Positions 5,300-18,855 of a DNA stretch of 26,355 bases are shown one piece after another. The notes below the pieces were generated by a model, which saw only the letters and a program-made list of their open reading frames with translations, was not told where the DNA came from and made no database searches. The position numbers were made by a program, and so were the translations under genes. How positions within the stretch are numbered: the stretch's first letter is position 1; each line of letters starts with the position of its first letter. The stretch covers positions 1 to 26,355 of the forward strand of contig JARYMM010000050.1 of the NCBI GenBank assembly GCA_029907105.1, given 5' to 3'. The stretch is from Anaerolineae bacterium. GTDB lineage: Bacteria; Chloroflexota; Anaerolineae; UBA3071.

Positions 5300-6895
5300 C
5301 TATTCGCCGAAGACCTCGGCGGTGAAGGCGTAGAGATGGGCATCCGCTTCCCGCCAGGCGTCCTCGGTCAGACCCGCCTTGCGGCACACAGCCTGCAGGG
5401 ACTCCTCCCGATCCCATCCCTCCTCCAGCGCAACCTGGGGCAGCAAGACCCCCTGCTGCCTGCCCTTGACGATGACCAGCCCATGCACGCCTACCTCAAT
5501 GCTGTTCACGTCCTGCACTTCTTGCAAGGGGGTGAGGGCGGAGATTTCGATCTCGATCTGCGGCAGTTCCTCCGCCGTGACCGCCGGGAAGCGAGGGTCG
5601 GCCAGGGCCGCCGACAGCGCTGCCGACTGCACCGACAGGTAGAGTGGCTGCCTCCCCACCAGTTCGCCGATACAGCCGCGCAATTCGCCCTCCTTCTCCA
5701 GGGTGACGAAGGCAGCCCGCGCCTGCCATAGCCCTGGCTCGGCCGGATGGACGATGGGCGCATCCCCCAGGGTCAGGAAGCGCTCCAGCGTGGTGCGGGC
5801 CAGCTTCAGCAGAGCGGCCCGTTCCTGCCCGTTGAGTGGGGCGATGGGCTGAAGCTCGTGCCGTCCCATCCACGCTGCCGGTGCTGTCACCTCATCGCCC
5901 TGCCAGAACATCACTGCCCCGTAGCCCACCACCTGACCCCGGTCGGCGAAGGGGGTGTCGCCGGAGTTGGCGTAGCGCAGCACGACGGCGCGGTTGGCGC
6001 CCAGCGCTTTGGCGGTCAGCATGGCCGTGAGGATGGGGCCTTCGCCACAGGCGCAGGTGGCCAGGTTGGGGATGTTCTGGCTCATCATCTCGTCGCGGGC
6101 AGCGATGAACCGCTCCGGTTCCAGGCTGACGATGGCCTGCAGGATGGCCGTATCGGAGCGCACGGCGTCGTCGTAGGCCGGGTAGTGGGAGAGGTCGGAG
6201 CTGGCGATGATGAGCGCCCGTTTGCCTGAAAGCACCTGGGCCAGGGCGTCGGCCAGGGCATGGGTGTTCTCCGCGCTGGGCTCGCCGATGACCACAGGCA
6301 CGAAGCGCAGCCGCTCGCCGTAAAGCCGCTGCAGGAAGGGCAGTTGTACCTCCACCGAATGCTCCTGGCGGTGCACGTTGCGGTCGAAGACGAGGCGCTC
6401 GTCGGCCTCCAGGAGCGCCGCGGCCAGCTCCTCGTCCACCTGAGCCACTCCCAGCGGCGTCTCGAAACCGCCTTTGGCCCAGACCGACACCTGGCGGAAG
6501 GTGGGGTCGCGGTGATTGTTGCCCACGACGACGATGGCCTCGTACTCCACCCCCTCGATCTGTTTATAGGCTTGGGCGGCCACGTGGCCGGAGTAGACGT
6601 AACCAGCATGGGGCACGATGAGCGCTACCGGCAGGGGACGGCCGGGCACCGCTTCCGCCTCTGCCAGCAAGGCATCCACCTGCGCGGCCAGCGTCTGGGG
6701 GTTATCGGAATAGAAACTGCCAGCGGCGATGGCTTTGCGCACTTCGCCGGGAAGGGTCGTGGGCGTGCCGGCCGCCGGCAGGACGGCGGCGGTGGCCGTG
6801 GGTGCCGGCGTTCGCTCTCTCACCGCGCACGAGGGCAACACAGCAGCGAGAGCTGCAATGATCAGAAGACCGACTTTGCCGTGTCGATTCATCAT
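5300..6895 (-). CDS. Fusion of a Memo-like domain (AmmeMemoRadiSam system protein B) and an AMMECR1 domain (protein A), with an N-terminal signal or lipoprotein peptide
   Basis: 531 aa. The N-terminus MMNRHGKVGLLIIAALAAVLPSCAV is a hydrophobic core followed by Cys. The Memo signature is VPHAGYVYSGHVAAQAY ... SSDLSHY. The AMMECR1 signature is AAFVTLEKEGELRGCIGE ... PRFP ... LEIEISALTPL. An AGGAG Shine-Dalgarno lies just upstream of the tandem ATGs. Confidence 0.85.
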   Translation of the reverse strand: MMNRHGKVGLLIIAALAAVLPSCAVRERTPAPTATAAVLPAAGTPTTLPGEVRKAIAAGSFYSDNPQTLAAQVDALLAEAEAVPGRPLPVALIVPHAGYVYSGHVAAQAYKQIEGVEYEAIVVVGNNHRDPTFRQVSVWAKGGFETPLGVAQVDEELAAALLEADERLVFDRNVHRQEHSVEVQLPFLQRLYGERLRFVPVVIGEPSAENTHALADALAQVLSGKRALIIASSDLSHYPAYDDAVRSDTAILQAIVSLEPERFIAARDEMMSQNIPNLATCACGEGPILTAMLTAKALGANRAVVLRYANSGDTPFADRGQVVGYGAVMFWQGDEVTAPAAWMGRHELQPIAPLNGQERAALLKLARTTLERFLTLGDAPIVHPAEPGLWQARAAFVTLEKEGELRGCIGELVGRQPLYLSVQSAALSAALADPRFPAVTAEELPQIEIEISALTPLQEVQDVNSIEVGVHGLVIVKGRQQGVLLPQVALEEGWDREESLQAVCRKAGLTEDAWREADAHLYAFTAEVFGE

Positions 6896-6904
6896 CCCAC
6901 TCCT

Positions 6905-6946
6905 GAAACGTGAAACGTAAAACGTGAAACGTAAGTCGTAGACGTG
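6905..6946. repeat. Six-unit 7-bp tandem repeat (GAAACGT-like) with a phased ACGT core
   Basis: The units are gaaacgt gaaacgt aaaacgt gaaacgt aagtcgt agacgtg. ACGT recurs at 6908, 6915, 6922, 6929 and 6942, with TCGT at 6936. The array fills most of the 63-nt gap between the TIR-propeller stop (6959) and the Memo-AMMECR1 Shine-Dalgarno and start. Confidence 0.75.
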
Positions 6947-6958
6947 CTTCCTTTTTGT

Positions 6959-9900
6959 TCACCGGGGGCGGCTCAATACCCAGATGTATTCGTAGCCTTC
7001 CACCAGCAACTCCTGGCCCGAAAAGGCAATCGGCTCCGGCACATTGGCGCTGGCGAACACCGTGTACACCCCTTCATCCAACTCCGCCGACCAGGTGTCG
7101 CCTGGCTTCAGGATGGCCGACTCGTCGCCGAAGGAAAGGGTCATCGGCCCCTGCAGGTTGTTGGTCACGCGCACGAGGGCCTTATCGCCAAGAGAGAGCG
7201 GCTCGATCTGAGGACGGGGCAGCATCCGTTCCCCGCCCTTTCCGGGCGTTGACGTCGGCTTCAGGGGGACTTCTTCCTGGCGCAGGGAAAGCTGATAGAC
7301 CTTGCGTTCATTGGGCAGGGCCAGCCACAGGTAGCCCTGTCGGTCAAAGGCCAGAATCGGGTAGTACGGGAAGGCTCCGATGCCCAGGCTGCCCTCTCGC
7401 AGCAGTTCACCGCTGAAGTTCAAACGGTACCAGGTGCCAAAGGTGTTCACCGCCCACAATCCATCGGGAGCCCAGGCCAGCGCCTCGGCACTGCCAAAGA
7501 TGGGCGCATGGAAGGTCTGCAGGGATGCGCCATCGGCGCTGAACCTCAGCAGGAACTCACCTCTATACTCCCACACCGCGCCATCGGCCGGATCCCGGGC
7601 TTGAACAGCGGTGATGCCCCGAGGCTGCGGAAAAGACTCCAACACCGTGCCCGTCGGGTCCAGCCGCACAACCCGGTTGCCCGGATAATCGCTCAACGTC
7701 AGAAGCAGCGTCGCACCGTCCCAGGCCAGACCCCGGATGGGGTTCGTGAAGGTGATCGGGAAAGAGGCCAGCGGCGTGCCAATGCGGTCCAGTTGATACA
7801 GCCGCTGCTGCTGCCCATCGGCCACCCAGAGGGTATCGCCGGCCACGGCCAGGGCGGCGGGATCGGGGCCGGGGGCGAAGAACTCGCTCACCACGGCTTC
7901 GGGGACGAAGATGAATCGGCTGGAAGGCAGGCCCACCGCGGTCGGCGAGGCAGCCGCTGCTGTGGGCACGGCTTCCGGCGTAGGAGTCGGCGTGGCTGGC
8001 TGAGGCGTGGGTTGGGGCGAGCGCGTAGGGGCAGCCGTTTCCGTGGAGGTCGGCAGCAACAGCCCCGCCAGGTCAATAGCCGGCGCGCCGGGAACCTGTA
8101 GGCGCAGCTCGTCGGCCTCTGAAGGAACCAGCCAGGCCAGAGTCAGCTCCGGCCACTGGCCATCGAAGGATGGGATATCTACGTCACCCTGATGAGAGAA
8201 GCTGACCCCTTCAGAGGTGCTCTTGACTTCGTACACCAGTTGCAGGCCGGGGGGCTTGAGGCGAGACATGATGATTTTGCCTTCCACCTGGCCGACGGCG
8301 TACTCTTCGGGCATAGGGGTCGCGCTGATCCGGATTCCGCTCGGAGCGTACACCTGTCCCCGGTTGTCCACTATGGAGATGTCTTCCAGGTTCAGAATGG
8401 CTCCCGCCGTCGGATTGTTGAGCCCCAGTTCTACGACCACGAAGACCCGGCCGATGCCTGCGATATGCTGGAGCGGCGGCTGTGCGCCGGATTGGCCGGG
8501 GCGTTTTTCTTCCAGGAAATACGCCCGCCGCGCCGAGGACACCCTGGCCTGCCAATCGCTGCCCGACGAACGAGCATGTGCCTCGGCCTTTGCCAGGGCC
8601 ACGTTCAGCCTGTATACCGCCAACTCCCCGGCGAGAGTGTCCCTGCCAATGGCCCAGAGATATCCATCGCCCCAGGCCAGGCCCTCGATCTGGTAGACCG
8701 GCGAAGGAAACGAGGCCAATTCCCTGCCCTGGGCGTCCAGCAGGGCGAGCACCGAGGGCGAAGGGAATTCGTGGTAGGCGACCCACAGACAGGAGCCATC
8801 CCACTCCAGGCCCAGGACGTTCTTGGGATAAGCGAAAGTGCTCAGAATACCCCCTGTGGCATCCAGGCGATACACATGGTACTGGTTCGCATACCACAGC
8901 GCCTGGCCGTCCCACGATAGATCGTTGGTGATGTCGCCACCGAACACCTGCGCCGGCGATTGGAAAGAGCTGAGCGTTTTCGGCTCCCGTCCCTCAAACC
9001 GGAAGCGGTAAATGAAGCCGTGGTTGGTTGTGAAAAGCCAGAAGCCGGTGCCGTCCCAGGTCAGACCTTGCGGCGTCACCTCGGGGGCCTGGAAGGCATC
9101 CAGGAGCGTGCCCGAGGGATCAACCTGGAAGAGGGTTCCCGAATTGTCGGCCAACCACAGGTGTGCCCCATCCCAGGCGATTCCCTCTGCCAGATGGCCG
9201 GGGGCTGCGAAGCGCTGCACGATGGAAATCCAGGCCACGGTAGGAGTTGGGGTGGCCGTTGGCCTGGCCATTGTTGTGGGTGTCATCGTCGGTGTGAAAC
9301 GTGAGAGGGGAGACGCAGCGATGATCTCTGCTGACGTTGGCGCGGGCGTGAGCAGGGACGCCATCTGACGGGTCAGGGTCGGTGGCACTGCTTCGGAACG
9401 AGGTCGTATCCCGAACCACCACAGGAGCACCAGCGCGGCGACGATCAAGAGCAGGGCAACGACAAGCGCTGGCCGCAGAGGCCGGGGCAGCAGGCGAGGC
9501 GCGGGAGGCGGCGTTGGGGGGCGTTCTGGCCCTGCAGGCGGCGTCGGCGGGCTTTCCGGCTGGCCCCCGGCCTGTAACACCGCCTCGACCGTCTCGGCAA
9601 GCCTCCCCAGGTGCTTCTCCAGGGGTGGGGTCAGCGCGTCCAGCCAGTGGATGGGCTTGATGTAATACCCCAGCTCCTTGGAGGGCTGCACATCTTCCAC
9701 ACGGAAGGGGATGACGGGGATGCCCCTGTCCACTGCCTCGCCCACTTCTCTGATCACCTGCCGTGACTTGTTGGCCCCGTCGGAGAAGACCAGGATGAAG
9801 ACGCGGCTTTTGTCAATCGCGTCAATGAGGGTGCTGGCCCAGGCTTCGCCGGGCAGCACATCCCGCGGGGCGATCCAGCAACGGATCTTCCTGTTTTCCA

Positions 9901-9970
9901 GGGTGGCACATACAGCGTCGGCGATCGCTTTATCTCGAGCCGAATAGCTGATGAACACGTCGTGTGCCAT
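6959..9970 (-). CDS. TIR domain - single TM - two extracytoplasmic beta-propeller-like repeat modules (membrane receptor-like TIR protein)
   Basis: 1003 aa. The N-terminal TIR_2-type domain reads HDVFISYSARD ... RCWIAPRD ... VFILVFSDGANKSRQVIREVGEA, and the conserved Glu is present. The TM helix is ALVVALLLIVAALVLLWWF (about aa 167-187, nt 9410-9472). Pro/Thr-rich linkers follow. Blade-like repeats carry G(L/I)(A/T)WDGxxLW (glutaminyl-cyclase-like propeller), once after the TM and again after a central Ig-like module (VFVVVELGLNNPTAG...IVDNRGQVY). Confidence 0.85.
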   Translation of the reverse strand: MAHDVFISYSARDKAIADAVCATLENRKIRCWIAPRDVLPGEAWASTLIDAIDKSRVFILVFSDGANKSRQVIREVGEAVDRGIPVIPFRVEDVQPSKELGYYIKPIHWLDALTPPLEKHLGRLAETVEAVLQAGGQPESPPTPPAGPERPPTPPPAPRLLPRPLRPALVVALLLIVAALVLLWWFGIRPRSEAVPPTLTRQMASLLTPAPTSAEIIAASPLSRFTPTMTPTTMARPTATPTPTVAWISIVQRFAAPGHLAEGIAWDGAHLWLADNSGTLFQVDPSGTLLDAFQAPEVTPQGLTWDGTGFWLFTTNHGFIYRFRFEGREPKTLSSFQSPAQVFGGDITNDLSWDGQALWYANQYHVYRLDATGGILSTFAYPKNVLGLEWDGSCLWVAYHEFPSPSVLALLDAQGRELASFPSPVYQIEGLAWGDGYLWAIGRDTLAGELAVYRLNVALAKAEAHARSSGSDWQARVSSARRAYFLEEKRPGQSGAQPPLQHIAGIGRVFVVVELGLNNPTAGAILNLEDISIVDNRGQVYAPSGIRISATPMPEEYAVGQVEGKIIMSRLKPPGLQLVYEVKSTSEGVSFSHQGDVDIPSFDGQWPELTLAWLVPSEADELRLQVPGAPAIDLAGLLLPTSTETAAPTRSPQPTPQPATPTPTPEAVPTAAAASPTAVGLPSSRFIFVPEAVVSEFFAPGPDPAALAVAGDTLWVADGQQQRLYQLDRIGTPLASFPITFTNPIRGLAWDGATLLLTLSDYPGNRVVRLDPTGTVLESFPQPRGITAVQARDPADGAVWEYRGEFLLRFSADGASLQTFHAPIFGSAEALAWAPDGLWAVNTFGTWYRLNFSGELLREGSLGIGAFPYYPILAFDRQGYLWLALPNERKVYQLSLRQEEVPLKPTSTPGKGGERMLPRPQIEPLSLGDKALVRVTNNLQGPMTLSFGDESAILKPGDTWSAELDEGVYTVFASANVPEPIAFSGQELLVEGYEYIWVLSRPR

Positions 9971-9983
9971 TGGGGATCATTTC

Positions 9984-12473
9984 CTATGCCTGCCGGCGGA
10001 TCTCCAACCCCACTTTGGCCAGGAACTCCGGTATCCGGCGCACCGTTTCTCGATCCCACTCCTTCACGTCGTCGGGGAGCGCCGACCAGGGCACCAGATA
10101 GGGGTTGGTTTTCCTGTACACGTCCCGCTTTTCACCCCGGGTCCAGCCGTCCAGCAGTCGCTCGGCCACCCAGCGCCCATGTTCCATCTCCGCCATGACC
10201 TCGACCTCGCTCTCCGTGAAGGTGATCGGCGAAACCTGGCCGCTGGCCACGCGGTGCACGGTGCAGCCGATCTGGCGCAGCTTCTCCGCCATGTGGTCGG
10301 CCTGTTGGCGGTTCGACTCCTTGAGGTTTTCCAGGAGGGCATTCCATTCGGCCAGCGAGGGGTCTTCGCTGGCCCGGCGGCCGGCCTGGAGCTGGCGGAA
10401 GGCCTCGTGAATGGCGCGGCCGAGGCTCTCGCGCAGCTCAGGCTCCAGCCTGGGGTTGCCCGAGCCGATGAAGGCGCGGACGGTCATGGCGTCGGCGGGC
10501 AAGCGCAGCAAGCGGCTGGAGGTATGCCAGTCCTCGTCGGCGAGCAGTTGGGCCACGGCGCGTCCGCTGCCCTCGATCACCGCCACGCGGGCCCCCAGGG
10601 CCAGCGCCAGCCGGTATTCGGCGGCGGCGATAGCGCCCCCGTTGATGCCCAGCAGCCTGACCTGCTCCGGTGAAATGCCGGAGGCGACGAGGTCAGTCCA
10701 GTATTGCAGCGCTTCCAGGGGGCTGAAATCGTGGCCGGTGGTGCGCCGGATCTCGCCGTAGCGCTCGTCCACGGTCACGCCCGCCGGGATCACCTGGGGG
10801 ATATAGCCGATAGTGCGGATGGCCGCAGGGTAGGCCTGCTGTACCTCGCCGGCCAGGCCGCTGATCCCGGCCATGGTGCCGCCGCAGATGAGCGTGCCCC
10901 GGAAGTCGCGGAAGCCTTCCCGCAGGAGCCGGCGGTAGGTTTGCATCTCCTGCTCCACGCTGGCATCGCAGCCGCCGCTCAGGATCACCACCGGGCCGGC
11001 CACCGCCGGGTGCCCGGGGGAAGCCAGCCGGCTCACCTGCTCCAGGACGGCAGGATGGGGAAACTTCACGCCCCATCCCAGCAGCAGCAGCCTGCGCGCC
11101 CATTCGTGTCCTGGCAGAGCCTCTTCGACGACGGAGAGCCTGTCCAGGGAGCGCAACGAGGTCTCGACCATCCACTCTTTTGTGCTGAGCCGGACCGCCC
11201 TGGCATAGGCGGTGAGGCTCTCGTAAGGCTTCCCCAGCAACAGGTAGAGCTTTCCCATGTCGTAGAAGGCCCAGGGCAGGTTCACGCCTACGTCGGCCTG
11301 GTCCCGGCAGCGCCGGATCGCCGCCTGGATGGCAGGGGTCAGCAGACGCACCACGGAAATATCTTTGCTCTCGACAATCTCGCATTCCAGATAGTTGCCA
11401 AAGGGATACGGGTCGGTGGGATCGAGTTCGAACGCCTGGCGGTAGTATTCTTTGGCCTTGCGGTCGTCAATCCCCTTCCACGTGCCGGCCAGGGAGGCCA
11501 GGGCGTCCGCATCTGTGCAGGGCGGCGCGCAGGCAGCCTCAAGGTAAGCCCGGCCTTGCCGGTATGGCGGGCTTTCCGGGTCCGCCCGATGCTGTTTGCA
11601 CAGGGCCACGCCGAGATCGCGCAGGATCGGCGGGTAGCCTGAAGGGACGTATGGACTGAGCACCTCTATGGCCTTCGGCCAGTCGCCCAGGGCGATGGCC
11701 AGCTTGCCGATACGGTGGGCCAGTTCGGCATTCTGTGGGTCGCAGGCCAGCACAGTCTCCAGCAAGGCCATCTCCTCCCGCATTTGCTCCTCGGACATAT
11801 AAGCGCCGTAGTTGGCGGCGTAGGTCTTGAGGCCGGCCTCGATGGCAGCGAAGGCATTGTCCACGCGCTCCAACATGGCGGCCAGGCCGGCGAACTCCCG
11901 TTGCCAGCGGGCCGGAACCGGAAACGGGCTTTTGTAGACCAGCCGGTGGTTGAAATCGGCCCAGGCATGCTCCAGGATCGTCCTGACCTGGATCTCGGCC
12001 TTCAGCCCGAGTACCTCTTGCGGGATCGCCACGTTTATATCCTTTGTCGGGAAGATGCCGGGCCTGAACTGGACGATGTAATGCACCGAGCGGTAGCCGA
12101 ATTCGGTGGGCTTCAGCCTTTGGGAGACGTCTATCGTGTTCGCCCGGTCCACGTCAAAATGCTGTTCGATGAAGGCGCAGATGGCCTTGACCTCCTCCGG
12201 CGTATGGGTGATGACACGTCCACCGCACAGGTCGGTGATCTGATTGACCGGGTCGCGGTACTTGGCCTTCTTACGCTGGATCTTCTCCGCAAAGCTGGCG
12301 ATGGACTTTGCCCGTGTCTGCACGATGGCTTCCGGTGCGTAGCGCCGGGCGGCTTGTTCGAGCACCTGGCGCAGGGTCTGGGCAAACGTCACATAGCGGG
12401 GCCGTGTGGCCCGGTATTTCTCGATCTGCTCGCAGGCCCATCGCAGATCCGCCTCTTGAGTTGAATCTGCCAA
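9984..12473 (-). CDS. RelA/SpoT-type nucleotide pyrophosphokinase (no HD hydrolase) - TPR-like region - SLOG/LOG-like Rossmann domain - RyR domain
   Basis: 829 aa.
- Synthetase motifs (nt about 11919-12356): TRAKSIASFAEKIQRK, DLCGGRVI, FGYRSVHYIV, EIQVRTILEHAWADFNH.
- Helical TPR-like repeats, aa about 235-470.
- SLOG-like motifs (nt about 10464-10997): VVILSGGCD, TLICGGTMAGISGLAG, LGINGGAIAAAEYRLALALGARVAVIEGSGR.
- C-terminal RyR-type repeat (nt about 9999-10436): AIHEAF...LKESNRQQADH...MAEMEHGRWVAERLLDGWTRGEKRD...NPYLVPWSALPDDVKEWDRETVRRIPEFL. Confidence 0.8.
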   Translation of the reverse strand: MADSTQEADLRWACEQIEKYRATRPRYVTFAQTLRQVLEQAARRYAPEAIVQTRAKSIASFAEKIQRKKAKYRDPVNQITDLCGGRVITHTPEEVKAICAFIEQHFDVDRANTIDVSQRLKPTEFGYRSVHYIVQFRPGIFPTKDINVAIPQEVLGLKAEIQVRTILEHAWADFNHRLVYKSPFPVPARWQREFAGLAAMLERVDNAFAAIEAGLKTYAANYGAYMSEEQMREEMALLETVLACDPQNAELAHRIGKLAIALGDWPKAIEVLSPYVPSGYPPILRDLGVALCKQHRADPESPPYRQGRAYLEAACAPPCTDADALASLAGTWKGIDDRKAKEYYRQAFELDPTDPYPFGNYLECEIVESKDISVVRLLTPAIQAAIRRCRDQADVGVNLPWAFYDMGKLYLLLGKPYESLTAYARAVRLSTKEWMVETSLRSLDRLSVVEEALPGHEWARRLLLLGWGVKFPHPAVLEQVSRLASPGHPAVAGPVVILSGGCDASVEQEMQTYRRLLREGFRDFRGTLICGGTMAGISGLAGEVQQAYPAAIRTIGYIPQVIPAGVTVDERYGEIRRTTGHDFSPLEALQYWTDLVASGISPEQVRLLGINGGAIAAAEYRLALALGARVAVIEGSGRAVAQLLADEDWHTSSRLLRLPADAMTVRAFIGSGNPRLEPELRESLGRAIHEAFRQLQAGRRASEDPSLAEWNALLENLKESNRQQADHMAEKLRQIGCTVHRVASGQVSPITFTESEVEVMAEMEHGRWVAERLLDGWTRGEKRDVYRKTNPYLVPWSALPDDVKEWDRETVRRIPEFLAKVGLEIRRQA

Positions 12474-12487
12474 GGCACACCTCCGTG

Positions 12488-12916
12488 CTAAGGCTGCCCA
12501 GGCTGCTGGCCGTAAGCCTGGGCGAAGGGCCGGAATTGCTCGACCAGGTCCATCCCCAGAAGGTCGTGAGGGGCGACCCAGGCGTAGTCCTCGTGTTCGC
12601 TGCTCAGGCGCACCTGGCCGGACTCCAGGCGGCCTTCCAGGATCAGATAGGCGACCTTACGCGTGGGCATCTCGGACTCCGCGGCCCCGGCCACCCGGTG
12701 CAGGGAGACCGTCAAACCTGTCTCCTCGGCCACCTCGCGCAGGAGCGCGGCGTCGAAATCCTCCCCAGCCTCCACCTTGCCGCCGGGGAACTCCCACTTG
12801 CCGGGATTGCCCTTCGAACTCGCCGACCGCCGCAGCAGCAGGCAGCGGTCGGCCTCATCGCGGATCACGACTTTGATAGACAGCGCAAACGGTTTGTCAG
12901 ACATGTAGCATTCCAT
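12488..12916 (-). CDS. Nudix (MutT-like) hydrolase
   Basis: 142 aa with a complete Nudix box, GGKVEAGEDFDAALLREVAEETGL (GX5EX7REUXEEXGU). An alternative ATG lies at 12904. Only 14 nt separate it from the downstream RelA/SpoT-SLOG-RyR gene. Confidence 0.9.
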   Translation of the reverse strand: MECYMSDKPFALSIKVVIRDEADRCLLLRRSASSKGNPGKWEFPGGKVEAGEDFDAALLREVAEETGLTVSLHRVAGAAESEMPTRKVAYLILEGRLESGQVRLSSEHEDYAWVAPHDLLGMDLVEQFRPFAQAYGQQPGQP

Positions 12917-12955
12917 GTAGTGAATTTGCCTTCTTTAGCGCTCCCGAATGCCTGC

Positions 12956-13002
12956 CCCTCACCCCTGTCCCTCTCCCATTGGGAGAGGGACAGGGGTGAG
13001 GG
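12956..13002. repeat. 47-nt near-perfect palindrome (23-nt arms) spanning the stop codon of the TIR-WD40 gene
   Basis: ccctcacccctgtccctctccca (12956-12978), then t, then tgggagagggacaggggtgaggg (12980-13002). The TGA stop (12959-12961) and the last roughly 14 codons (..PVPLPMGEGQG*) are encoded by the palindrome. It sits 40 nt upstream of the Nudix start. Confidence 0.85.
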
Positions 13003-15814
13003 CGGAAGGCGTGCACAGGTCTGGCAGATTGGGGCAGGTGGGACGGCAAGGCTCGTCACCGATGTACTGTTGCCACTCCTCCAGGGTCAGATTCCTGGGC
13101 AGACGGGCGCAGGCCTCGGCAATCACATCCTCCGGCCTCCACAACGACACCTGCACCGTGCCATCGCTGTGCCCCGAGGCCACCCATCGCCCATCAGGGC
13201 TGAAGGCTACGGCCTTTACCGTACCTCTGTGTTCCATACGGGCCATCTCCTGCCCGCTGGCTGCCTCCCACACCCGTGTTGTGCCATCTCTGCCTCCTGA
13301 CGCTACCCACGTCCCATCGGGGCTGAAGGCCACGCCTTCTGTCACATCCCTGTACTCCATCCGGGTCACCTCCTGACCGCTCGTGACCTCCGCTATGCGC
13401 ACGGTGTTGTCCCCCATCCCCAAGGCTACCGCCACCCACTTACCGTCAGGGCTGAGCGCCAGGTCATTTACATAACTCTCGTAGGCAATGCGGGTCACCT
13501 CCTGGCCGGATGCGGCGTCCCAAACCAGCACTGTGCCATGTTGGTCCCCAGAGACCACCCACCTTCCGTCGGGGGTGAAGGCCACGCCGCTTATCGGGCC
13601 ATCGTGCACCATCCGGGCCACCTCTCTTCCAGAAGCTATCTCCCGTACCCGCACTGTGTTGCCCAAACTCCCTAACCCTATCGCCAACCGCTGTCCGTCG
13701 GGGCTGAAAGCCATAGCCGTCACCTCATACCTGTCCTCCAGCCGAGCCACCTCCTGCCCGGTGGTCACTTCCCACACCCGTATCGTTCCCTCCCCGCTCC
13801 CCGAGGCCAGCCACTGGCCATCAGGGCTGAAAGCTATGGCTCTCACGTAGCTGTGCTCCATGCGGGCCACCTCCTGCCTGGTGGCCACCTCCCACAATCG
13901 CACCGTGCCATCCGCACTCCCCGAAGCCATCCATCGCCCATCGGGACTGAAGGCCAGAGTGCTGACCTCGCCCTGGTGTTCCATCCGGGCCACTTCCCAG
14001 ATGCGCACTCTGTTGTCCTCGCTGCCTGTCACCACCCGTCGCCCGTCGAGGCTGAACGCCACGGCGTTCACCGCCCCTCCGTGGAACATCCGGGCCACCT
14101 CCCGCCCGCCGGCCGCCTCCCACACTCGCGCCGTGCCATCTCTGCTCCCTGACAGCACCCATCTTCCATCAGGGCTGAAGATCACGGTTTCCACTCCACC
14201 GTCATGTCCCCTCGAGGCCACGATGCGCCCACTGTTTGCCTCCCACACGCGCATGGAGTAGTCCCAACTTCCTGAGGCCACCCACCTTCCGTCGGGGCTG
14301 AAGGCCACGGCGTTCACAGGCCCGCCGTGTACGACGCGGGCTATCTCCTGGTCGGTAGCCACCTCCCAGACCAGCGCGGCGTTATCTCCCCATCCTCCCA
14401 ATGCCACACGCTCGCCGTCGGGGCTGAAAGCCACCGTCCATACCCGTCCCCCGCGTTTCATCCGGGCTATCTCCTGCCCGGTGGCTGTCTCCCACACGAC
14501 GGCTCCGCCGTCATTTTCAAATGGCCGTTCATATCCTGACACCAGCCACCTTCCGTCGGGGCTGAAGGCCACGGCCGTGACCTCACCCTCGTGCAGCATC
14601 TTCGCCGTCTCCTGCCCGGTGGCAACCTCCCATATCCGTGCACTGTGGTCGCGGCTTCCAGAGGCTACCCACCTTCCGTCGGGGCTGAAAGCCACCGCTT
14701 CCACCGACCCTTCATGCGTGACACGGGCCACTTCCTGTCCGCTGGCGGCTTCCCACACCCGCATCGTGCCGTCCGCGCTTCCCGATGCTATGTGCTTTCC
14801 ATCGGGACTGATGGCCACGATGCGCACGGCCCCCTCATGCCTCATGCGAGCCACTTCTCGCCCCGTAGTCGCCTCCCATAGGCGCACCGTGGCATCCTCG
14901 CTCCCCGACACGGCCCACCGGCCGTCGGGGCTGAAGGCCACGGCATTGACCTTACCTTCATGCGCTGCCTGGGCCACCAGCGGAGGAAACAGGGCCAGCC
15001 CACGGTGCAGGACCTGGTCTCCTTCCAACGAAGGGAAGCGCCGCATGGACTCCGTAGCCAGCAGCATACTCCACAGCAGTCCGCTGCCCGTTTCCCCCCA
15101 TACCATCTGCGCCTGGGCCGCCAGTTGCCGGGCCATGGCCACCTGGCGCTGTTCTTGCGCCTGAGCCTGGGCCGTGGCCCGCACCTGGGCTTCCATTACC
15201 ACTGTGGCCTGGGCCATTTCGGCCTGGGCCTGCGCCGTGCTGCGGACCTGTGCTTCGGCCGCGGCAGTCGCCTCGGCGGCGGCTGCCTCCTGGCGCGCCT
15301 GGCCGGCCTCCAATGTCCGCTGGCCAGCATACCGGACCAGGCCGACAGAGATCAGGACGAAGGCCAGGACAAAGACAGCCGTCAGAAGGCGACGCCGAAA
15401 GCGGCGCTGTTCGTCGCGGCGCTTCAGCTCGTCAAAGCTCACGCCCAGCATGCCTGCCAGCAGCTTGAGCCTGGCGTTGGCCCTGCCGTCCCCCTGCCGG
15501 CGGGCATCAGCGGCCACGGGTTCCATCTGCCTGAGCGCCGGCGGAAAGCACTCGCGCTCGTCGCGGCTGTTGGGCTCGCCATCCACGATGAAGGCGAAAA
15601 CCCGCTCGCTGCGGCCCAGTTCGGCGAATGTCTCGATCTCCCGGTTTACCCACCTGGACCGCGCGGCACGCGGAGAACAGACCACGATCAGATAGCGCGA
15701 AGCGGCCAGGGCCTCTTCGATGGCTTTACCCAGGTCCGCGGAGGCGGGCAGCTCGTCGCGGTCGCGGAAGACGGGTTGGAAGCGCCTGGGAGCCAGATCC
15801 CCTGCCGGCGTCAC
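12959..15814 (-). CDS. TIR domain - single TM - coiled coil - 15 WD40 repeats. Coordinates use the first canonical start (GTG); the true N-terminus is probably upstream, near 15940
   Basis: 951 aa from the GTG at 15814.
- TIR core: RYLIVVCSPRAARSRWVNREIETF ... VFAFIVDGEP, with the conserved Glu present.
- The first TIR strand and helix (YWAFISYSSKDTAHAKWLHRAIETYGIP) are encoded in frame upstream of the GTG; I translated this by hand.
- A strongly basic segment (KRRDEQRRFRRR) precedes the TM helix LLTAVFVLAFVLISVGLV (nt about 15335-15391).
- An Ala/Gln-rich coiled coil follows.
- Then come 15 repeats of the type HxGxVxAVAFSPDGRWVASGSxDGTxRVWEVATGQEVARM. Confidence 0.9.
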   Translation of the reverse strand: MTPAGDLAPRRFQPVFRDRDELPASADLGKAIEEALAASRYLIVVCSPRAARSRWVNREIETFAELGRSERVFAFIVDGEPNSRDERECFPPALRQMEPVAADARRQGDGRANARLKLLAGMLGVSFDELKRRDEQRRFRRRLLTAVFVLAFVLISVGLVRYAGQRTLEAGQARQEAAAAEATAAAEAQVRSTAQAQAEMAQATVVMEAQVRATAQAQAQEQRQVAMARQLAAQAQMVWGETGSGLLWSMLLATESMRRFPSLEGDQVLHRGLALFPPLVAQAAHEGKVNAVAFSPDGRWAVSGSEDATVRLWEATTGREVARMRHEGAVRIVAISPDGKHIASGSADGTMRVWEAASGQEVARVTHEGSVEAVAFSPDGRWVASGSRDHSARIWEVATGQETAKMLHEGEVTAVAFSPDGRWLVSGYERPFENDGGAVVWETATGQEIARMKRGGRVWTVAFSPDGERVALGGWGDNAALVWEVATDQEIARVVHGGPVNAVAFSPDGRWVASGSWDYSMRVWEANSGRIVASRGHDGGVETVIFSPDGRWVLSGSRDGTARVWEAAGGREVARMFHGGAVNAVAFSLDGRRVVTGSEDNRVRIWEVARMEHQGEVSTLAFSPDGRWMASGSADGTVRLWEVATRQEVARMEHSYVRAIAFSPDGQWLASGSGEGTIRVWEVTTGQEVARLEDRYEVTAMAFSPDGQRLAIGLGSLGNTVRVREIASGREVARMVHDGPISGVAFTPDGRWVVSGDQHGTVLVWDAASGQEVTRIAYESYVNDLALSPDGKWVAVALGMGDNTVRIAEVTSGQEVTRMEYRDVTEGVAFSPDGTWVASGGRDGTTRVWEAASGQEMARMEHRGTVKAVAFSPDGRWVASGHSDGTVQVSLWRPEDVIAEACARLPRNLTLEEWQQYIGDEPCRPTCPNLPDLCTPSALTPVPLPMGEGQG
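13139..14962 (-). repeat. Intragenic tandem array of 15 WD40 units of about 126 bp (42 codons), with recurrent near-identical DNA blocks
   Basis: Strings such as tcggggctgaaggccacggc and ccatcagggctgaaggc recur at roughly 126-bp intervals on the plus strand. They encode the AFSPDG core of each blade. One unit is shortened (..RVRIWEVARME) and one is lengthened (GYERPFENDGGAVV). Confidence 0.85.
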
Positions 15815-15937
15815 ATGCCCGTGCTCTACCAGCTTGGCCGGGATGCCGTAGGTCTCGATGGCACGGTGCAGCCATTTGGCGTGGGCCGTATCTTTGCTGC
15901 TGTAGCTGATGAACGCCCAGTAACGGTATTCCTGAGG

Positions 15938-15955
15938 GATGGCTGCTTCCTCCTC
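15938..15955 (-). promoter_or_regulatory. Strong Shine-Dalgarno (GAGGAGG) plus an in-frame ATC, the candidate non-canonical start of the TIR-WD40 gene
   Basis: Minus strand: ACC GAG GAG GAA GCA GCC ATC CCT CAG GAA TAC CGT TAC TGG GCG TTC ATC AGC TAC AGC. GGAGG (15953-15949) is followed by an 8-nt spacer and then ATC (15940-15938). No ATG, GTG or TTG lies in frame between the TAA at 15982-15980 and the GTG at 15814. Confidence 0.4.
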
Positions 15956-15979
15956 GGTGAAAGCCTCCCCTGGGGGCCT

Positions 15980-17776
15980 TTAGTTTAGCCGATATACCTG
16001 CAACCCCGCCCGCGCCAGAAGGCGCGGCAACTCGCGGACGGTGTGGCGGTCTTTCTCCTTTTCCGATGCGGGCAACTCGTCCCACGGTACCAGGTCGGGA
16101 CTGGTCCTCCTTTCCAGGTCCTTGGGCCCTGGGGCATAGGTCCAGCCGGCACGCCGCCGCTCCTCGACGAAGCGCTGGTGTTCCATCTCGGCCATCCGCT
16201 CGACTTCCTCCGCCGTGAACTGGAACCGCTCCGCCTCCCAATCGGTCAAAGGGGCGATGGCGCAGCCAACGGCCCTCAGTTTCACGCCGATGTGGTCTGC
16301 CTGACGCCGGTTGGACTCCTTGAGGCCCTCCGGCAGTTCGTCCCAGGGCACCATCGAGGGGTTGGACTCGGGGGTCTGGCCCTGCTCCGCCTGATGGCGC
16401 ACGTACTCTTCGTGGATGGCCCGCGCCAGCATCTCGTGCGTGCCGCCGAGCAGCAACTCCGGCCGGCAGGTGCGATCCAGCAGGCCAAAAGCGTGCAGGT
16501 TAGCAAAGGCACCGCCTTCGCCCTCCGCCCGGCGCAGCAGCGTGGCCAGCCCTGCCTCGTCGCTCATGCGCACGACGATGGGAATCGCCCGCCCTCGAAG
16601 CTTTTGCAGCAGCGTCAGGCCGGCGGTCAGGCCGGCGGAATCGTCGCCCAGACAGATGTAGATGGCAGTCACGTCGCTACAGCCCTGAGGGTCGAAAAGG
16701 AACTCTGCCCGCTGATACTCCGGCCAGCGGATGTCCATCTGACGGGGGATCAGTTCGCAGACCTGCGCAAGCTGGGGGTAGCGCAGGCCCAGCGTTTGCA
16801 CTTTGCGTTCGGCTTCGCGGTCCACGATGGTAATGCGCAGCCGTGTATCTGCTGTGCCCTGTCGCTCCCGCCAATGGCGCGCGGCGCGCACGACCAGACT
16901 CTGCCCCATGCGTCCCAGCCCCACCACCAGCAGGTGCGGTGGGGTGGCCGGGGCCGGCCCTGCTTCGTCAAAGGGCGGATATTCCTCCAGCAGGGCGCGG
17001 GCCCCCAGCCCGTAGACGTTGAAGAACTCCAGCCGGAAGGCGCCGCTATCCTCCAGCTCCCGCTCCCGAAGCAGGTCGCACAGTTGGGGGTCCACCAGGT
17101 GGACGAAGCGGGTCAGAGGCTCCTCGCGGCCGGCGGCCAGTTGGCGGGCGTGGACGGCGATCTCGGCGTTGACGCCGTCATCCCCGCCGGCCGCGACCAG
17201 GTATCTGGCCGCCTGGACCCCGGCGCGGTGCAACAGGTGCGGGTCCGTCGCGTCGCCGATCAAGACCATCGCCCCCTGGTCGCGACATGGCCCCAGCAGG
17301 TGGTCGTCCTCGTTCTGTTCGATGACCACGACCTGCTCGCCCCGGGCGAGAAACCCTTTGGCCAGCAGGAAGCCCTTGCGACCCAGCCCGCAAATCACCA
17401 CGTGATCGCGGATGAAGCGCAGGCGCAGCGACTGGAACTGCTCCGAGAAAAGGACGGTCAGGGCCCGCACGGCGGTATAGGCGGCCACGGTCGGGGCCAG
17501 GAGCCGCGCCACCTCCAGTTCCCAGCTTTTGGGTCCGGGGAGCGAGCCAGACTCCAGCGTGAACAGTTGCAGGGCCAGGTAGAAGAGATCCCAGGGCGAG
17601 CGGGTCTCCTGCCGCGCCGCAAAGAGCCTGGCGAAGCCCAGGTAGCCCAGAACCGGCGTGACCAGCCACAGCCCGCCGATCACGCCCCACTGGATGTCAT
17701 GCCATCGGTGTCGCCCCTGTTCCCGCCAGAACGTCTTCAGGCGGTTCCACCACTTCAGCCCGCCCGGGTTGTTCAT
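15980..17776 (-). CDS. Membrane protein: 2-TM channel-like N-terminus - two TrkA-N (RCK-type NAD-binding Rossmann) domains - C-terminal RyR domain
   Basis: 598 aa.
- Hydrophobic helices: WGVIGGLWLVTPVLGYLGFARLF and ARLLAPTVAAYTAVRALTVLF. They flank a short helix and loop, WDLFYLALQLFTLESGSLPG.
- Rossmann GxGxxG motifs: VVICGLGRKGFLLAKGFLARGEQVVVIE and LLVVGLGRMGQSLV.
- RyR-type repeat (nt about 15992-16435), clearly paralogous to the C-terminus of the 829-aa protein: AIHEEY...LKESNRRQADH...MAEMEHQRFVEERRRAGWTYAPGPKD...SPDLVPWDELPASEKEKDRHTVRELPRLL. Confidence 0.8.
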   Translation of the reverse strand: MNNPGGLKWWNRLKTFWREQGRHRWHDIQWGVIGGLWLVTPVLGYLGFARLFAARQETRSPWDLFYLALQLFTLESGSLPGPKSWELEVARLLAPTVAAYTAVRALTVLFSEQFQSLRLRFIRDHVVICGLGRKGFLLAKGFLARGEQVVVIEQNEDDHLLGPCRDQGAMVLIGDATDPHLLHRAGVQAARYLVAAGGDDGVNAEIAVHARQLAAGREEPLTRFVHLVDPQLCDLLRERELEDSGAFRLEFFNVYGLGARALLEEYPPFDEAGPAPATPPHLLVVGLGRMGQSLVVRAARHWRERQGTADTRLRITIVDREAERKVQTLGLRYPQLAQVCELIPRQMDIRWPEYQRAEFLFDPQGCSDVTAIYICLGDDSAGLTAGLTLLQKLRGRAIPIVVRMSDEAGLATLLRRAEGEGGAFANLHAFGLLDRTCRPELLLGGTHEMLARAIHEEYVRHQAEQGQTPESNPSMVPWDELPEGLKESNRRQADHIGVKLRAVGCAIAPLTDWEAERFQFTAEEVERMAEMEHQRFVEERRRAGWTYAPGPKDLERRTSPDLVPWDELPASEKEKDRHTVRELPRLLARAGLQVYRLN

Positions 17777-17812
17777 GGATGCCTTTAAGGTGTGCAGTCT
17801 GAAAGCAGTGGC

Positions 17813-18841
17813 CTAGAATATCCTCTGCTCCAGAAACGCCCTGGCCTCTTCCAGGGCCGGCAGGGAGCGGGCCATGTCCAGATGGATGCCCAGCTCGGCG
17901 GTCAGCGGCTCCAGGAGGTTCCAAAGCCGCTCGCTGCGCACGTGCACACGGGCCGGCAGGCCGCGCAGGGGTTGCAGGGCCTTCAGGAAGTTCTGCGGCG
18001 TCTGCTGCCACACCGCCTTCAGGGTCGGCTTGGGAGCCATGAGGTCCGTTCGCAGGATGAACCCCGAGTCAGCATCCACCAGCATCAGCATGTAGGCGAA
18101 GTAGGGCCGCGGGTCCCCCTTCTCTTGGATGCCTCCGGGGAAGGGAAAGAGATCGGCTTGCAGGGTCATCTTCAGGAAGGGAAGCCGACGCAGCGCGGCC
18201 AGCTCCGCAGGCTCGATGGTTATGGCCAGAGGCTGCTCCTCGAAAGGCTCCGGCTCCAGCCATTCGTCTCTCCAGACCAGGGCGCCCTCCCGCGCTTCGG
18301 CCGTGCGCACCAGGTAAATGCCGTCGTACAGGGGATCCAACAGATTGGGGTTATCCCGCACCCGCAGGGCCACCTCCAGGCCCTGCTCCAGGGCCACGGT
18401 CAGGAAGCGCGCCTCGGCGTCGCTCACGAACCAGGGCAGGTAGCCGGGCACATAGGCGCGGAACAGCGGCCAGGCCTGCCGCCCGCGGAACTTCAGCCCC
18501 AGCGATTTGATGACTTCCCGATCTTTGTCTTGCAGCTCTTCCCGATCCTCCCAGGAGGCCTGCAATTGGGGTATTTCCAGGATGATGGCGGGGTCTGCCT
18601 CGGCGTCCGTGTGTATCCGCCAGAAGCCCTCCAATCCCTCGGACCCCGGGTAGAGGGCCAGAGCCAGGTGTTCGCCCAGTGCGCCCATGATGCTCCCGTA
18701 GCCGATCTGCCCGCTTTCCGGATCGCGCACGCCGAAGAGGTCGTCCTCGAACATCCATTCCCAGGGGGCGGCTTCCTTGAAAGCCGCCGCCGCGGCGTAG
18801 AGCTTACGCCACTCGTCAAATGAAGGTTGTTGTGTGTCCAT
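17813..18841 (-). CDS. Conserved hypothetical protein (function unknown)
   Basis: 342-aa ORF with coding-like GC3 and non-repetitive, globular-looking sequence (FDEWRKLYAAAAAFKEAAPWEWMFEDDLFGVRDPESGQIGYGSIMG...). I recognise no catalytic motif. It is 14 nt downstream of the PmbA-like gene and 36 nt upstream of the TrkA-N/RyR gene. Confidence 0.6.
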   Translation of the reverse strand: MDTQQPSFDEWRKLYAAAAAFKEAAPWEWMFEDDLFGVRDPESGQIGYGSIMGALGEHLALALYPGSEGLEGFWRIHTDAEADPAIILEIPQLQASWEDREELQDKDREVIKSLGLKFRGRQAWPLFRAYVPGYLPWFVSDAEARFLTVALEQGLEVALRVRDNPNLLDPLYDGIYLVRTAEAREGALVWRDEWLEPEPFEEQPLAITIEPAELAALRRLPFLKMTLQADLFPFPGGIQEKGDPRPYFAYMLMLVDADSGFILRTDLMAPKPTLKAVWQQTPQNFLKALQPLRGLPARVHVRSERLWNLLEPLTAELGIHLDMARSLPALEEARAFLEQRIF

Positions 18842-18855
18842 GAGTTGTCTCCTAT

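Follow-up and report, generated by a model that had tools for sequence, protein, structure and literature searches.

A RelA/SpoT-type synthetase fused to TPR, SLOG and RyR modules, a candidate signal-gated enzyme of TIR-containing gene clusters in uncultured prokaryotes

Contig JARYMM010000050.1 of an Anaerolineae bacterium (assembly GCA_029907105.1), a stretch of 26,355 nucleotides that we refer to in its entirety as the window, carries on its minus strand (9984..12473) a gene encoding an 829-aa protein in which a RelA/SpoT synthetase core is followed by a TPR solenoid, an LSDAT-type SLOG domain and a pair of RyR repeats. The gene belongs to a run of same-strand genes. Two of the others encode TIR proteins, one a NUDIX hydrolase and one a channel-like protein with an RyR pair of its own. 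The best-supported reading is that the 829-aa protein would be a pyrophosphokinase gated in cis by a ligand, and the effector of this TIR-containing cluster. We give an even chance to the fuller proposal that it is switched on by a signal and provides the enzymatic output of nucleotide signalling of the TIR type, in a Thoeris-like conflict system where the NUDIX protein would serve as the counteracting hydrolase. What is new here is an architecture for which we found no experimental study, a variant on the themes of Thoeris-like systems and of toxic small alarmone synthetases (toxSAS).

The open reading frame (ORF) begins with a TTG codon, and its product is 100% identical to NCBI protein P0001, annotated as 'RyR domain-containing protein [Anaerolineae bacterium]'. 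An earlier examination of the bare DNA, hereafter the sequence-only reading, had placed four modules on this single ORF. Its coordinates were exact and its four domain calls are correct, far beyond chance: RelA_SpoT, LSDAT_prok and RyR each scored above the Pfam gathering cut-off, and several TPR models matched as well. Residues 1-225 (11799..12473, on the minus strand as are the other modules) comprise a long N-terminal helix, the synthetase core and a linker helix predicted with low confidence (residues 174-221), as delimited by Pfam, PDB sequence matches and Foldseek. Residues 226-485 (11019..11798) form a TPR-like alpha-solenoid according to Pfam TPR models, AlphaFold2 (AF2) and Foldseek. 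They are followed by the LSDAT-type, Rossmannoid SLOG domain, a candidate nucleotide sensor (residues 486-675, 10449..11018; Pfam, domain model, Foldseek), and by the tandem RyR repeat pair, a second candidate nucleotide-binding module (residues 676-829, 9987..10448; Pfam, PDB, Foldseek). Two details of the initial description needed correction. The helical repeats extend over about 260 aa instead of roughly 230, and the C-terminal RyR module is not a single repeat but a tandem pair resembling RyR Repeat12. The AF2 model of the full-length protein reached a pLDDT of 85.1 and a pTM of 0.73. Judged by its profile matches, the protein is a bona fide member of the RelA/SpoT homologue (RSH), LSDAT-SLOG and RyR domain families.

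The RelA_SpoT profile matched residues 53-182 (E = 1.2e-19, 71.1 bits for a cut-off of 27), and no HD hydrolase family was found among the Pfam matches of the protein at E ≤ 0.01. Furthermore, in an alignment of 46 full-length homologues sharing 55-70% identity with the protein (alignment A1), the catalytic motifs were invariant in 46/46 sequences: R54-x-K56-S (the RxKS motif for ATP binding), D81-L-C-G84-x-R86 (containing the Mg2+ Asp), E124-F-G126-Y127-R-S-x-H131 (the G-loop with its stacking Tyr) and E160-I-Q162-V-R-T (containing the catalytic Glu). The core is complete and lacks an HD domain, as first proposed. HMMER aligned these motifs one by one with those of Bacillus subtilis RelP/YwaC (E = 2.3e-11) and RelQ (7e-8), and Foldseek superposed the AF2 model on SAS1 and SAS2 structures (E about 5e-6, TMt about 0.6). 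A catalytically dead N-terminal domain, which the sequence-only reading had allowed for, finds no echo in these intact motifs and SAS-like folds, and the enzyme looks catalytically competent from sequence and model alike.

The place of this synthetase among known RSH enzymes is less conventional. NCBIfam went no further than a match below threshold to the small alarmone synthetase (SAS) YjbM, and the spoT_relA model scored 14.6 bits for a cut-off of 499. SASs are generally single-domain proteins (Atkinson 2011, PMC3153485), unlike this protein of 829 aa with three extra modules. We also considered a close kinship with the CapRel and Tas1 clades and rejected it, as CapRelSJ46 (7ztb) was matched at E = 0.7 only and no Tas1 structure occurred in the top 50 PDB fold matches. 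Some SASs without a hydrolase domain act as toxins, through synthesis of (pp)pApp or pyrophosphorylation of tRNA (PMC7229694; 10.1101/2021.04.30.441581). The N-terminal domain matched the PADLOC defence candidate PDC-S33 at 2e-20.

The synthetase is joined to the SLOG domain by the solenoid, to which the Pfam models TPR_2, TPR_17, TPR_19 and TPR_1 were matched between residues 235 and 430, and TPR-S weakly. Helix hairpins run all along this region in the AF2 model, and its Foldseek matches were the TPR parts of SPY/OGT and designed TPRs. LSDAT_prok, described as 'SLOG in TRPM, prokaryote', matched residues 494-648 (E = 8.7e-8, 32.1 bits for a cut-off of 25.4). The SLOG motifs consist of G500, G526-T and G609-x-x-G612-G613-x-I-x-x-x-E619; among the 46 homologues G500, G526, G609, G612 and E619 are invariant and G613 is nearly so. 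A PDB sequence search with residues 486-675 returned nothing meaningful, and only the fold search was informative. Modelled alone, this segment gave a pLDDT of 92.1 and a pTM of 0.90, and its first 34 PDB matches in Foldseek were all TRPM chains (TRPM2, TRPM4, TRPM5, TRPM8 and TRPM3; TMq about 0.6). The best was TRPM2 (8srh_A, E = 5.4e-7), and the TRPM2 matches included ADP-ribose (ADPR)-bound and apo states as well as the isolated MHR1/2 and NUDT9H of human TRPM2 with dADPR (8e6v, rmsd 3.6). The TRPM4 matches included its ATP-bound state, and the next match after the TRPM chains was the SLOG protein MCP (2iz5, TMt 0.76). The assignment of the central Rossmann module to a sensor-type SLOG thus stood on three counts, namely an LSDAT_prok score above cut-off, the TRPM MHR1/2 fold and the retained GG...E motifs. 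With TRPM MHR1/2 as the top fold matches, neither an unrelated fold nor a plain LOG-like enzyme was recovered. By profile and predicted fold, this SLOG groups with the LSDAT clade, to which MHR1/2 of the TRPM channels corresponds and which in animals binds ADPR or ATP but does not act as an enzyme.

The RyR profile (PF02026) matched residues 754-826 (E = 6.7e-17, 62 bits for a cut-off of 27.4), and PDB sequence matches of the module included the RyR chimera 6uhi (3e-24) and 3nrt of Bacteroides thetaiotaomicron (9e-12). With the full-length model, Foldseek aligned about 200 columns to the whole of human RyR3 Repeat12 (TMt 0.5-0.6), the structures matched holding ATP, ADP or dantrolene. Of the two repeats, the first is degenerate (AIH689EAF...W710..L..KESNR), with H689 and W710 invariant in the family and N721 and R722 present in the protein. 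The second is canonical (AEMEH765GRW768...GW777...P791YLVPW796..L..KEWD807R808). In animals, Repeat12 of RyR1 and RyR3 binds ADP and ATP, and RY12 of RyR1 has been described as an ADP sensor (PMC13642953; PMC12627627). Two 2026 preprints report that phage PF02026 proteins bind 2'cADPR and 3'cADPR (cyclic ADPR isomers) at nanomolar affinity, or cleave them, that these molecules are the products of Thoeris TIR enzymes, and that the ligand is contacted by a His-x-x-Trp motif, a second His and an Asp (PMC13232231; 10.64898/2026.06.04.730250). When the contacts of PMC13232231 were mapped onto our alignment, H765 and W768 were invariant and D807 was mostly kept, with S or N in several homologues; the position of the second, phosphate-contacting His is occupied by N790 in the protein and by S in the family consensus. 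The RyR pair is a candidate nucleotide sensor because phage RyR proteins recognise 2'/3'cADPR and share part of these contact residues with it. These findings call for a revision of the initial view of the RyR module as a passive extra, and the protein appears to hold two candidate nucleotide pockets, in the SLOG domain and in the RyR pair, instead of one.

The same residues could be taken to mean that one or both modules are enzymes, either a LOG-like N-glycosidase or signal generator in the case of SLOG, or a RyDEP-like glycosidase destroying cADPR isomers in the case of RyR, so that the protein would be a multi-enzyme nucleotide-processing machine. The LOG-like GG...E spacing of the SLOG domain would suit this idea, as would the catalytic His/Asp dyad of RyDEP, whose counterparts here are H765, invariant, and D807, conserved in most homologues. 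However, the SLOG domain is nearest to the non-catalytic TRPM MHR1/2 clade and away from LOG enzymes, and most phage RyR homologues tested bind without cleaving, conserved residues notwithstanding (PMC13232231). Several homologues moreover have S or N instead of D807, and the equivalent of H100 is N or S. We therefore hold enzymatic sensor modules to be very unlikely, and favour binding of a ligand.

A source for such a ligand is suggested by the neighbouring genes. The gene for the 829-aa protein is one of six on the minus strand separated by gaps of 13-42 nt. A scan of 6700-19100 for promoters and terminators gave counts at chance level, so that the operon structure is read solely from the common strand and the short gaps. 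Downstream lies a 1003-aa protein (6959..9970) with a TIR_2 domain (Pfam, E = 7e-22), one hydrophobic segment, Pro/Thr-rich linkers and beta-propeller-like repeats, a candidate signal generator. Upstream, 14 nt from the start of the 829-aa ORF, lies a 142-aa NUDIX hydrolase (12488..12916; Pfam NUDIX, E = 9.6e-24). The next gene (12959..15940) encodes a ThsB-like TIR domain, one hydrophobic segment, a coiled coil and about 14 WD40 repeats, the latter found with Pfam and the TIR domain by N-terminal extension. Its listed GTG start is at 15814, and the betaA/alphaA sequence of the TIR domain, YWAFISYSSKDTAHAKWLHRAIETYGIP, was found upstream in the same frame, which there offers no ATG, GTG or TTG. 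The frame is also that of the TAA stop of the gene upstream (15982-15980), and the start is likely ATC at 15940, preceded by GGAGGA. The extended protein matched TIR_2 at 4e-15 and ThsB_TIR at 1.4e-10 (Pfam).

In both TIR proteins of the window, the hydrophobic segment directly follows the TIR domain (residues 163-181 of the 1003-aa protein and 183-201 of the TIR-WD40 protein). Judging from this layout, they look like single-pass membrane proteins with outward propellers and a topology resembling that of Toll-like receptors. A crude hydropathy scan found transmembrane-like segments in 20/33 TIR proteins beside related loci as well. The fifth gene (15980..17776) encodes a 598-aa protein composed of two hydrophobic helices, a TrkA_N (RCK) domain (1e-22) and an RyR pair (8e-16), a candidate channel-like second effector or receiver. 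Its helices are moderately hydrophobic and surround a short pore-helix-like stretch, with no TVGYG filter. Its RyR pair and that of the 829-aa protein are paralogous (48% identical, E = 9e-44). A DUF7309/DUF6930 protein (17813..18841; Pfam) stands at the upstream end of the run; it occurred next to none of 80 related loci and probably does not belong to the system. Beyond the run, the flanking genes are housekeeping genes (Memo/AMMECR1, TldD/PmbA and, as read from its translation, a putative histidyl-tRNA synthetase). Between an R3H/AAA gene and the Memo-AMMECR1 gene we also noted a 329-aa ORF (4183-5172, minus strand) that gave no Pfam match at E ≤ 0.001 and overlaps a 367-aa ORF of the plus strand.

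To the sequence-only reading the architecture had seemed unusual. It turned out to be that of a stable, widely distributed family. A search of 5.8 billion proteins gave 943 matches, and the best 120 of these were all near-full-length (coverage of at least 98%), 54-70% identical and of the same Pfam content. When 185,579 species were scanned, each through a single genome, 329 encoding stretches came to light (about 0.2%), with near-full-length relatives of 41-71% identity, and a 50%-identity library queried with the SLOG and RyR part alone yielded 913 clusters at E ≤ 1e-30. The best 80 of the 329 stretches all came from metagenome-assembled genomes (MAGs), both bacterial (Chloroflexota, Gemmatimonadota, Planctomycetota, Actinomycetota, Bacteroidales, Proteobacteria and Verrucomicrobia) and archaeal (Bathyarchaeia, Methanomicrobia, Methanobacterium, Halobacteriota and Thermoplasmatota). 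The family is accessory and its distribution among uncultured lineages is patchy, apparently as a result of horizontal transfer. Archaea otherwise seldom have RSH enzymes (PMC3153485), and an enzyme acting on universal targets would suit the archaeal occurrence better than ppGpp signalling of the classical kind.

The architecture is therefore common, but it is not already characterised as far as the literature searched goes: as the earlier author had supposed, our searches turned up no experimental study of any protein built in this way. On combinations of RelA/SpoT with SLOG and RyR or TIR they returned general reviews only, next to which an earlier, purely computational mention may still exist, and no paper tying host RyR domains to TIR signalling was found in the literature searched. 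The family has gone unstudied probably because it is found almost only in uncultured lineages. Burroughs and colleagues, writing in Nucleic Acids Research in 2015, reportedly defined the SLOG/LSDAT group and predicted computationally its association with nucleotide-centred conflict systems.

We then compared gene neighbourhoods within 8 kb in the best 80 loci and the window (81 related loci; single loci are cited below by L numbers), for which ORFs were called, neighbours clustered and profiles built. A subset of 44 loci with at least 3 kb on either side was regarded as well flanked. A NUDIX subfamily of ~140 aa was encoded on the same strand within 200 bp in 39/81 loci and within 8 kb in 45/81 (23/44 of the well-flanked ones). 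TIR proteins followed (24/81; well flanked, 17/44), then NLR-like proteins of the DUF4062-STAND-WD40 type (20/81; 13/44). TrkA_N-RyR orthologues were present in 20/81 loci and any second RyR-bearing protein in 23/81 (14/44). Six of the 44 well-flanked loci had none of NUDIX, TIR, DUF4062 or a second RyR. The TIR glutamate, E75 of the 1003-aa protein, was invariant in 33/33 neighbouring TIR domains. The DUF4062-STAND(NACHT/AAA_16)-WD40 proteins are large, as exemplified in L082 and L083. The idea that DUF4062 is a TIR-like domain, which would lift TIR co-occurrence to 27/44, was dropped, since hhalign put the probability of a relationship to the local TIR domains at 0.8%. The same partners were recovered from independent gene calls whose Pfam labels had been precomputed, in addition to ClpB, ClpP, CesT/YbjN-type chaperones and more RCK proteins. 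Recurrent neighbours also included ClpB-like AAA+ proteins (15 loci), YbjN/TY-Chap1/CesT-type proteins, ClpP and two-transmembrane SLATT_1 proteins (5 loci); examples of these chaperone, protease and SLATT_1 neighbours lie at 1-1554 and 12728-13839 of L083, 5709-8099 of L075 and 7703-9448 of L016. Genes of the SLATT, YbjN/TY-Chap and ClpB/ClpP kinds typically accompany conflict systems.

The NUDIX protein, whose link was missing from the first view of the cluster, is the most conserved partner of the synthetase fusion, adjoining it in about half of the loci and fused to it in 4 of 46 long relatives. Its Nudix box is intact. Among solved structures it is closest to an uncharacterised 'MutT related protein' (3grn, 1e-26), with NudI, MutT and a CTP pyrophosphohydrolase next in rank. 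NCBIfam ranked NudG, MutT and NudI types first and matched NAD+ diphosphatase weakly, with no ADP-ribose pyrophosphatase model among the matches listed; in PADLOC the protein matched the defence candidate PDC-S07. Both in vitro and in vivo, (p)ppGpp is degraded by MutT and by NudG (PMC5845004). The position of the NUDIX domain, just upstream of the synthetase or fused to its N terminus, resembles the hydrolase-synthetase order of long RSHs and also recalls the small alarmone hydrolase (SAH) antitoxin of FaRel modules (PMC7229694). We favour the product of the synthetase as the NUDIX substrate because the enzyme is of the MutT/NudG-like type, stands next to the synthetase, and MutT and NudG degrade (p)ppGpp. 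By analogy with the SLOG-NUDT9H pairing of TRPM2, it could also degrade an ADPR-type signal, which we consider less likely.

Fusions and truncations within the family were surveyed in 46 atypically long relatives (from the P0121-P0270 set, alignment A3) recovered by the SLOG and RyR search of the 50%-identity library. RelA_SpoT was kept in 43/46, and extra domains in the same polypeptide were NUDIX (4), TrkA_N (2) and a protein kinase (1). We had considered SLOG-RyR as a portable sensor cassette with variable effectors, a candidate set aside given this retention of RelA_SpoT. Other variants were seen in the related loci. Versions of ~1,055-1,060 aa bear a KaiC/RAD55-like ATPase (PF06745) C-terminal to the RyR pair (1466-4648 of L007, a Bathyarchaeia MAG; 3701-6877 of L084; P0101, P0103 and P0120). 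About 12 of the 81 relatives stop just past the SLOG domain, at about 675 aa and without RyR (for example 7856-10495 of L033, and in L038, L052, L042, L008 and L019). Directly upstream in several of these RyR-less loci lies a protein of ~879 aa that has a Walker-A-like motif, GTPGSGKS, and ends in an RyR pair (Pfam RyR, 4.6e-24), which indicates that the RyR module can come on a separate polypeptide.

This separation raises the question of polarity. RelA/SpoT could be the signal generator, with the TPR or SLOG region sensing the trigger, the RyR pairs of the TrkA_N-RyR and 879-aa P-loop-RyR partners acting as effectors, and NUDIX resetting the system. Such an arrangement would accommodate the RyR-less relatives, often accompanied by a separate RyR-bearing protein directly upstream, as well as the RyR pairs common to the synthetase fusion and its partners (48% identity in the window; RyR partners in 23/81 loci). 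RyR Repeat12 binds phosphate-bearing adenine nucleotides, and a NUDIX of the NTP-pyrophosphatase type suits a polyphosphorylated nucleotide signal. Conversely, 58/81 loci have no second RyR protein nearby, and both the role of TIR and the presence of SLOG and RyR on the synthetase itself would be left unexplained. We regard this reversed order as quite unlikely, and retain the protein as the output enzyme and not the source of the signal.

As the output enzyme of TIR signalling, the protein would act as follows. Once triggered, the membrane-anchored TIR/beta-propeller proteins would turn NAD+ into an ADPR-derived signal, for example a cADPR isomer, that would bind the SLOG domain, the RyR pair or both. 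The TPR solenoid would transmit this event or hold an autoinhibited state, and the linker helix (residues 174-221) may help to couple binding to release of the synthetase. The freed RelA/SpoT domain would then move the pyrophosphate of ATP onto one of two kinds of acceptor, either a purine nucleotide, which would become (pp)pApp or (p)ppGpp, or the 3' end of tRNA, and its product would stop growth or translation. NUDIX would degrade this product (less likely the signal) in the role of an HD hydrolase or SAH antitoxin, thereby preventing self-intoxication. In parallel, the TrkA_N-RyR protein, with its paralogous RyR pair, would answer the same ligand at the membrane.

Several observations weigh against this proposal. 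TIR proteins were present in only about 40% of the well-flanked loci (17/44), and 6/44 had no recognisable partner. We saw none of the effector swapping typical of defence sensors, RelA_SpoT being tied to SLOG-RyR in 43/46 long relatives, and the best 120 homologues are at least 54% identical across distant phyla, which is high for a gene in an arms race. TRPM4 SLOG binds ATP and Repeat12 of RyR1 and RyR3 binds ADP and ATP, so the ligands could be ordinary adenine nucleotides. The external propellers on both TIR proteins fit an outside cue at least as well as a phage. Finally, curated Thoeris models found little in the proteins of the window: PADLOC ThsB1 matched at 8e-4 and ThsA not at all, and NCBIfam ThcB4 reached 0.009 and 14.8 bits for a cut-off of 220.

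The limited co-occurrence with TIR leaves room for a non-immune second-messenger role, in which an alarmone would be made under the control of ordinary adenine nucleotides or NAD metabolites, through which SLOG and RyR would gauge the energy or redox state of the cell. NUDIX would then be the matching hydrolase, TrkA_N-RyR would couple the pathway to ion homeostasis, and the TIR and NLR-like neighbours would be incidental or one input of several. Such a hub would be consistent with the strong purifying selection and fixed architecture, with the 27/44 well-flanked loci lacking TIR, with RCK/TrkA_N partners suggestive of ion regulation, and with a NUDIX and synthetase pair that mirrors the hydrolase and synthetase logic of long RSHs. 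The description of RyR1 RY12 as an ADP sensor, the binding of ATP and ADP by Repeat12 (PMC13642953; PMC12627627) and ATP binding by TRPM4 SLOG point in the same direction. However, such a hub is hard to reconcile with a patchy distribution suggestive of horizontal gene transfer (about 0.2% of species representatives), which includes archaea, where RSHs are rare (PMC3153485), nor does it account for the recurrent TIR, STAND-WD40, SLATT, chaperone and protease neighbours or for the PADLOC defence-candidate matches. On balance, we find it rather unlikely, and TIR-type signalling remains our preferred reading.

The main interest of the window lies in the presence, in one prokaryotic operon, of a TRPM-type SLOG, a Nudix enzyme, an RyR Repeat12-like pair, TIR enzymes and a channel-like protein, at a time when RyR-domain proteins have newly been shown to recognise TIR-made cADPR isomers (2026 preprints). 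If our proposal is correct, an alarmone-type pyrophosphokinase would be a new output of TIR/Thoeris-like signalling, and two separately studied fields, NAD-derived immune signals and RSH/toxSAS growth control, would be joined. The RyR domains of bacteria and archaea, whose only functions demonstrated so far (2026) are in phage counter-defence, would also gain a role in the cell, and there would be a tractable prokaryotic system in which to study the long-debated question of what Repeat12 and MHR1/2 sense and where these animal channel modules originated. A broader and more doubtful extension, which we offer tentatively, is that a pathway from TIR to cADPR isomers or ADPR uses TRPM2 modules (LSDAT SLOG and Nudix) and the RyR Repeat12 pair as receivers. 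Host RyR pairs would then be true receptors of TIR-made nucleotides, gating both an alarmone/tRNA pyrophosphokinase and the channel-like partner, the RyR sponges of phages would derive from host receptors that they had captured, and the ADPR-TRPM2 and cADPR-RyR links of animals would descend from one bacterial conflict system.

In its expected working the protein resembles both Thoeris and the fused toxSASs, but it is a member of neither, as it matches no Thoeris profile and is neither small nor close to CapRel. Like type I Thoeris (the TIR protein ThsB with the SIR2-SLOG protein ThsA), the cluster places TIR proteins with a catalytic Glu beside an effector carrying SLOG in cis, and the expected logic, in which a NAD-derived signal would turn on a growth-arresting enzyme, is the same. 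It differs in its effector domain, an RSH pyrophosphokinase instead of a SIR2 NADase, in a SLOG of the LSDAT/TRPM clade and not of the ThsA clade, and in the addition of the RyR pair, TPR solenoid and NUDIX partner; TIR accompanies it in ~40% of loci, and the Thoeris hidden Markov models are unmatched. With the toxSAS and fused CapRel-type enzymes (FaRel, FaRel2, PhRel and CapRel), it shares a hydrolase-less RSH synthetase with all catalytic motifs, a small neighbouring gene as possible neutraliser (SAH in FaRel, NUDIX here) and the idea of autoinhibition in cis. In contrast to them, its sequence resembles RelP/RelQ (E = 1e-11) more closely than CapRel (E = 0.7), and it extends over 829 aa with nucleotide-sensor domains where they have a small antitoxin domain, and would respond to a small molecule and not to a phage protein, its putative neutraliser being a Nudix and not an HD hydrolase.

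The sensor modules find their counterparts elsewhere. TRPM2, which combines an LSDAT SLOG (MHR1/2) with a channel and NUDT9-H, has a SLOG of the same clade by Pfam and fold, a SLOG-Nudix partnership and an ion channel, to which the channel-like protein encoded in the same operon as the synthetase fusion corresponds. Unlike TRPM2, the output here is an enzyme and there is no TRP pore, and the Nudix protein is MutT/NudG-like rather than NUDT9/ADPRase-like and usually the product of a separate gene. RyR Repeat12, phage RyDEP and RyR Tad, and B. thetaiotaomicron 3NRT share with our protein the PF02026 domain, the two-repeat unit, the HxxW contacts and, in most homologues, the Asp contact. The phage proteins are free sponges or glycosidases, whereas the module described here is host-encoded and fused to an enzyme; relative to Repeat12, RyDEP and RyR Tad, its first repeat is degenerate and its phosphate-contacting His is replaced by N or S. 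Finally, the long RSHs (Rel, RelA and SpoT) offer the same overall layout of a synthetase with a hydrolytic partner, N-terminal or upstream, and a large C-terminal regulatory region gating synthesis, with an HD hydrolase in place of the Nudix and the TGS-ACT ribosome sensors in place of TPR-SLOG-RyR.

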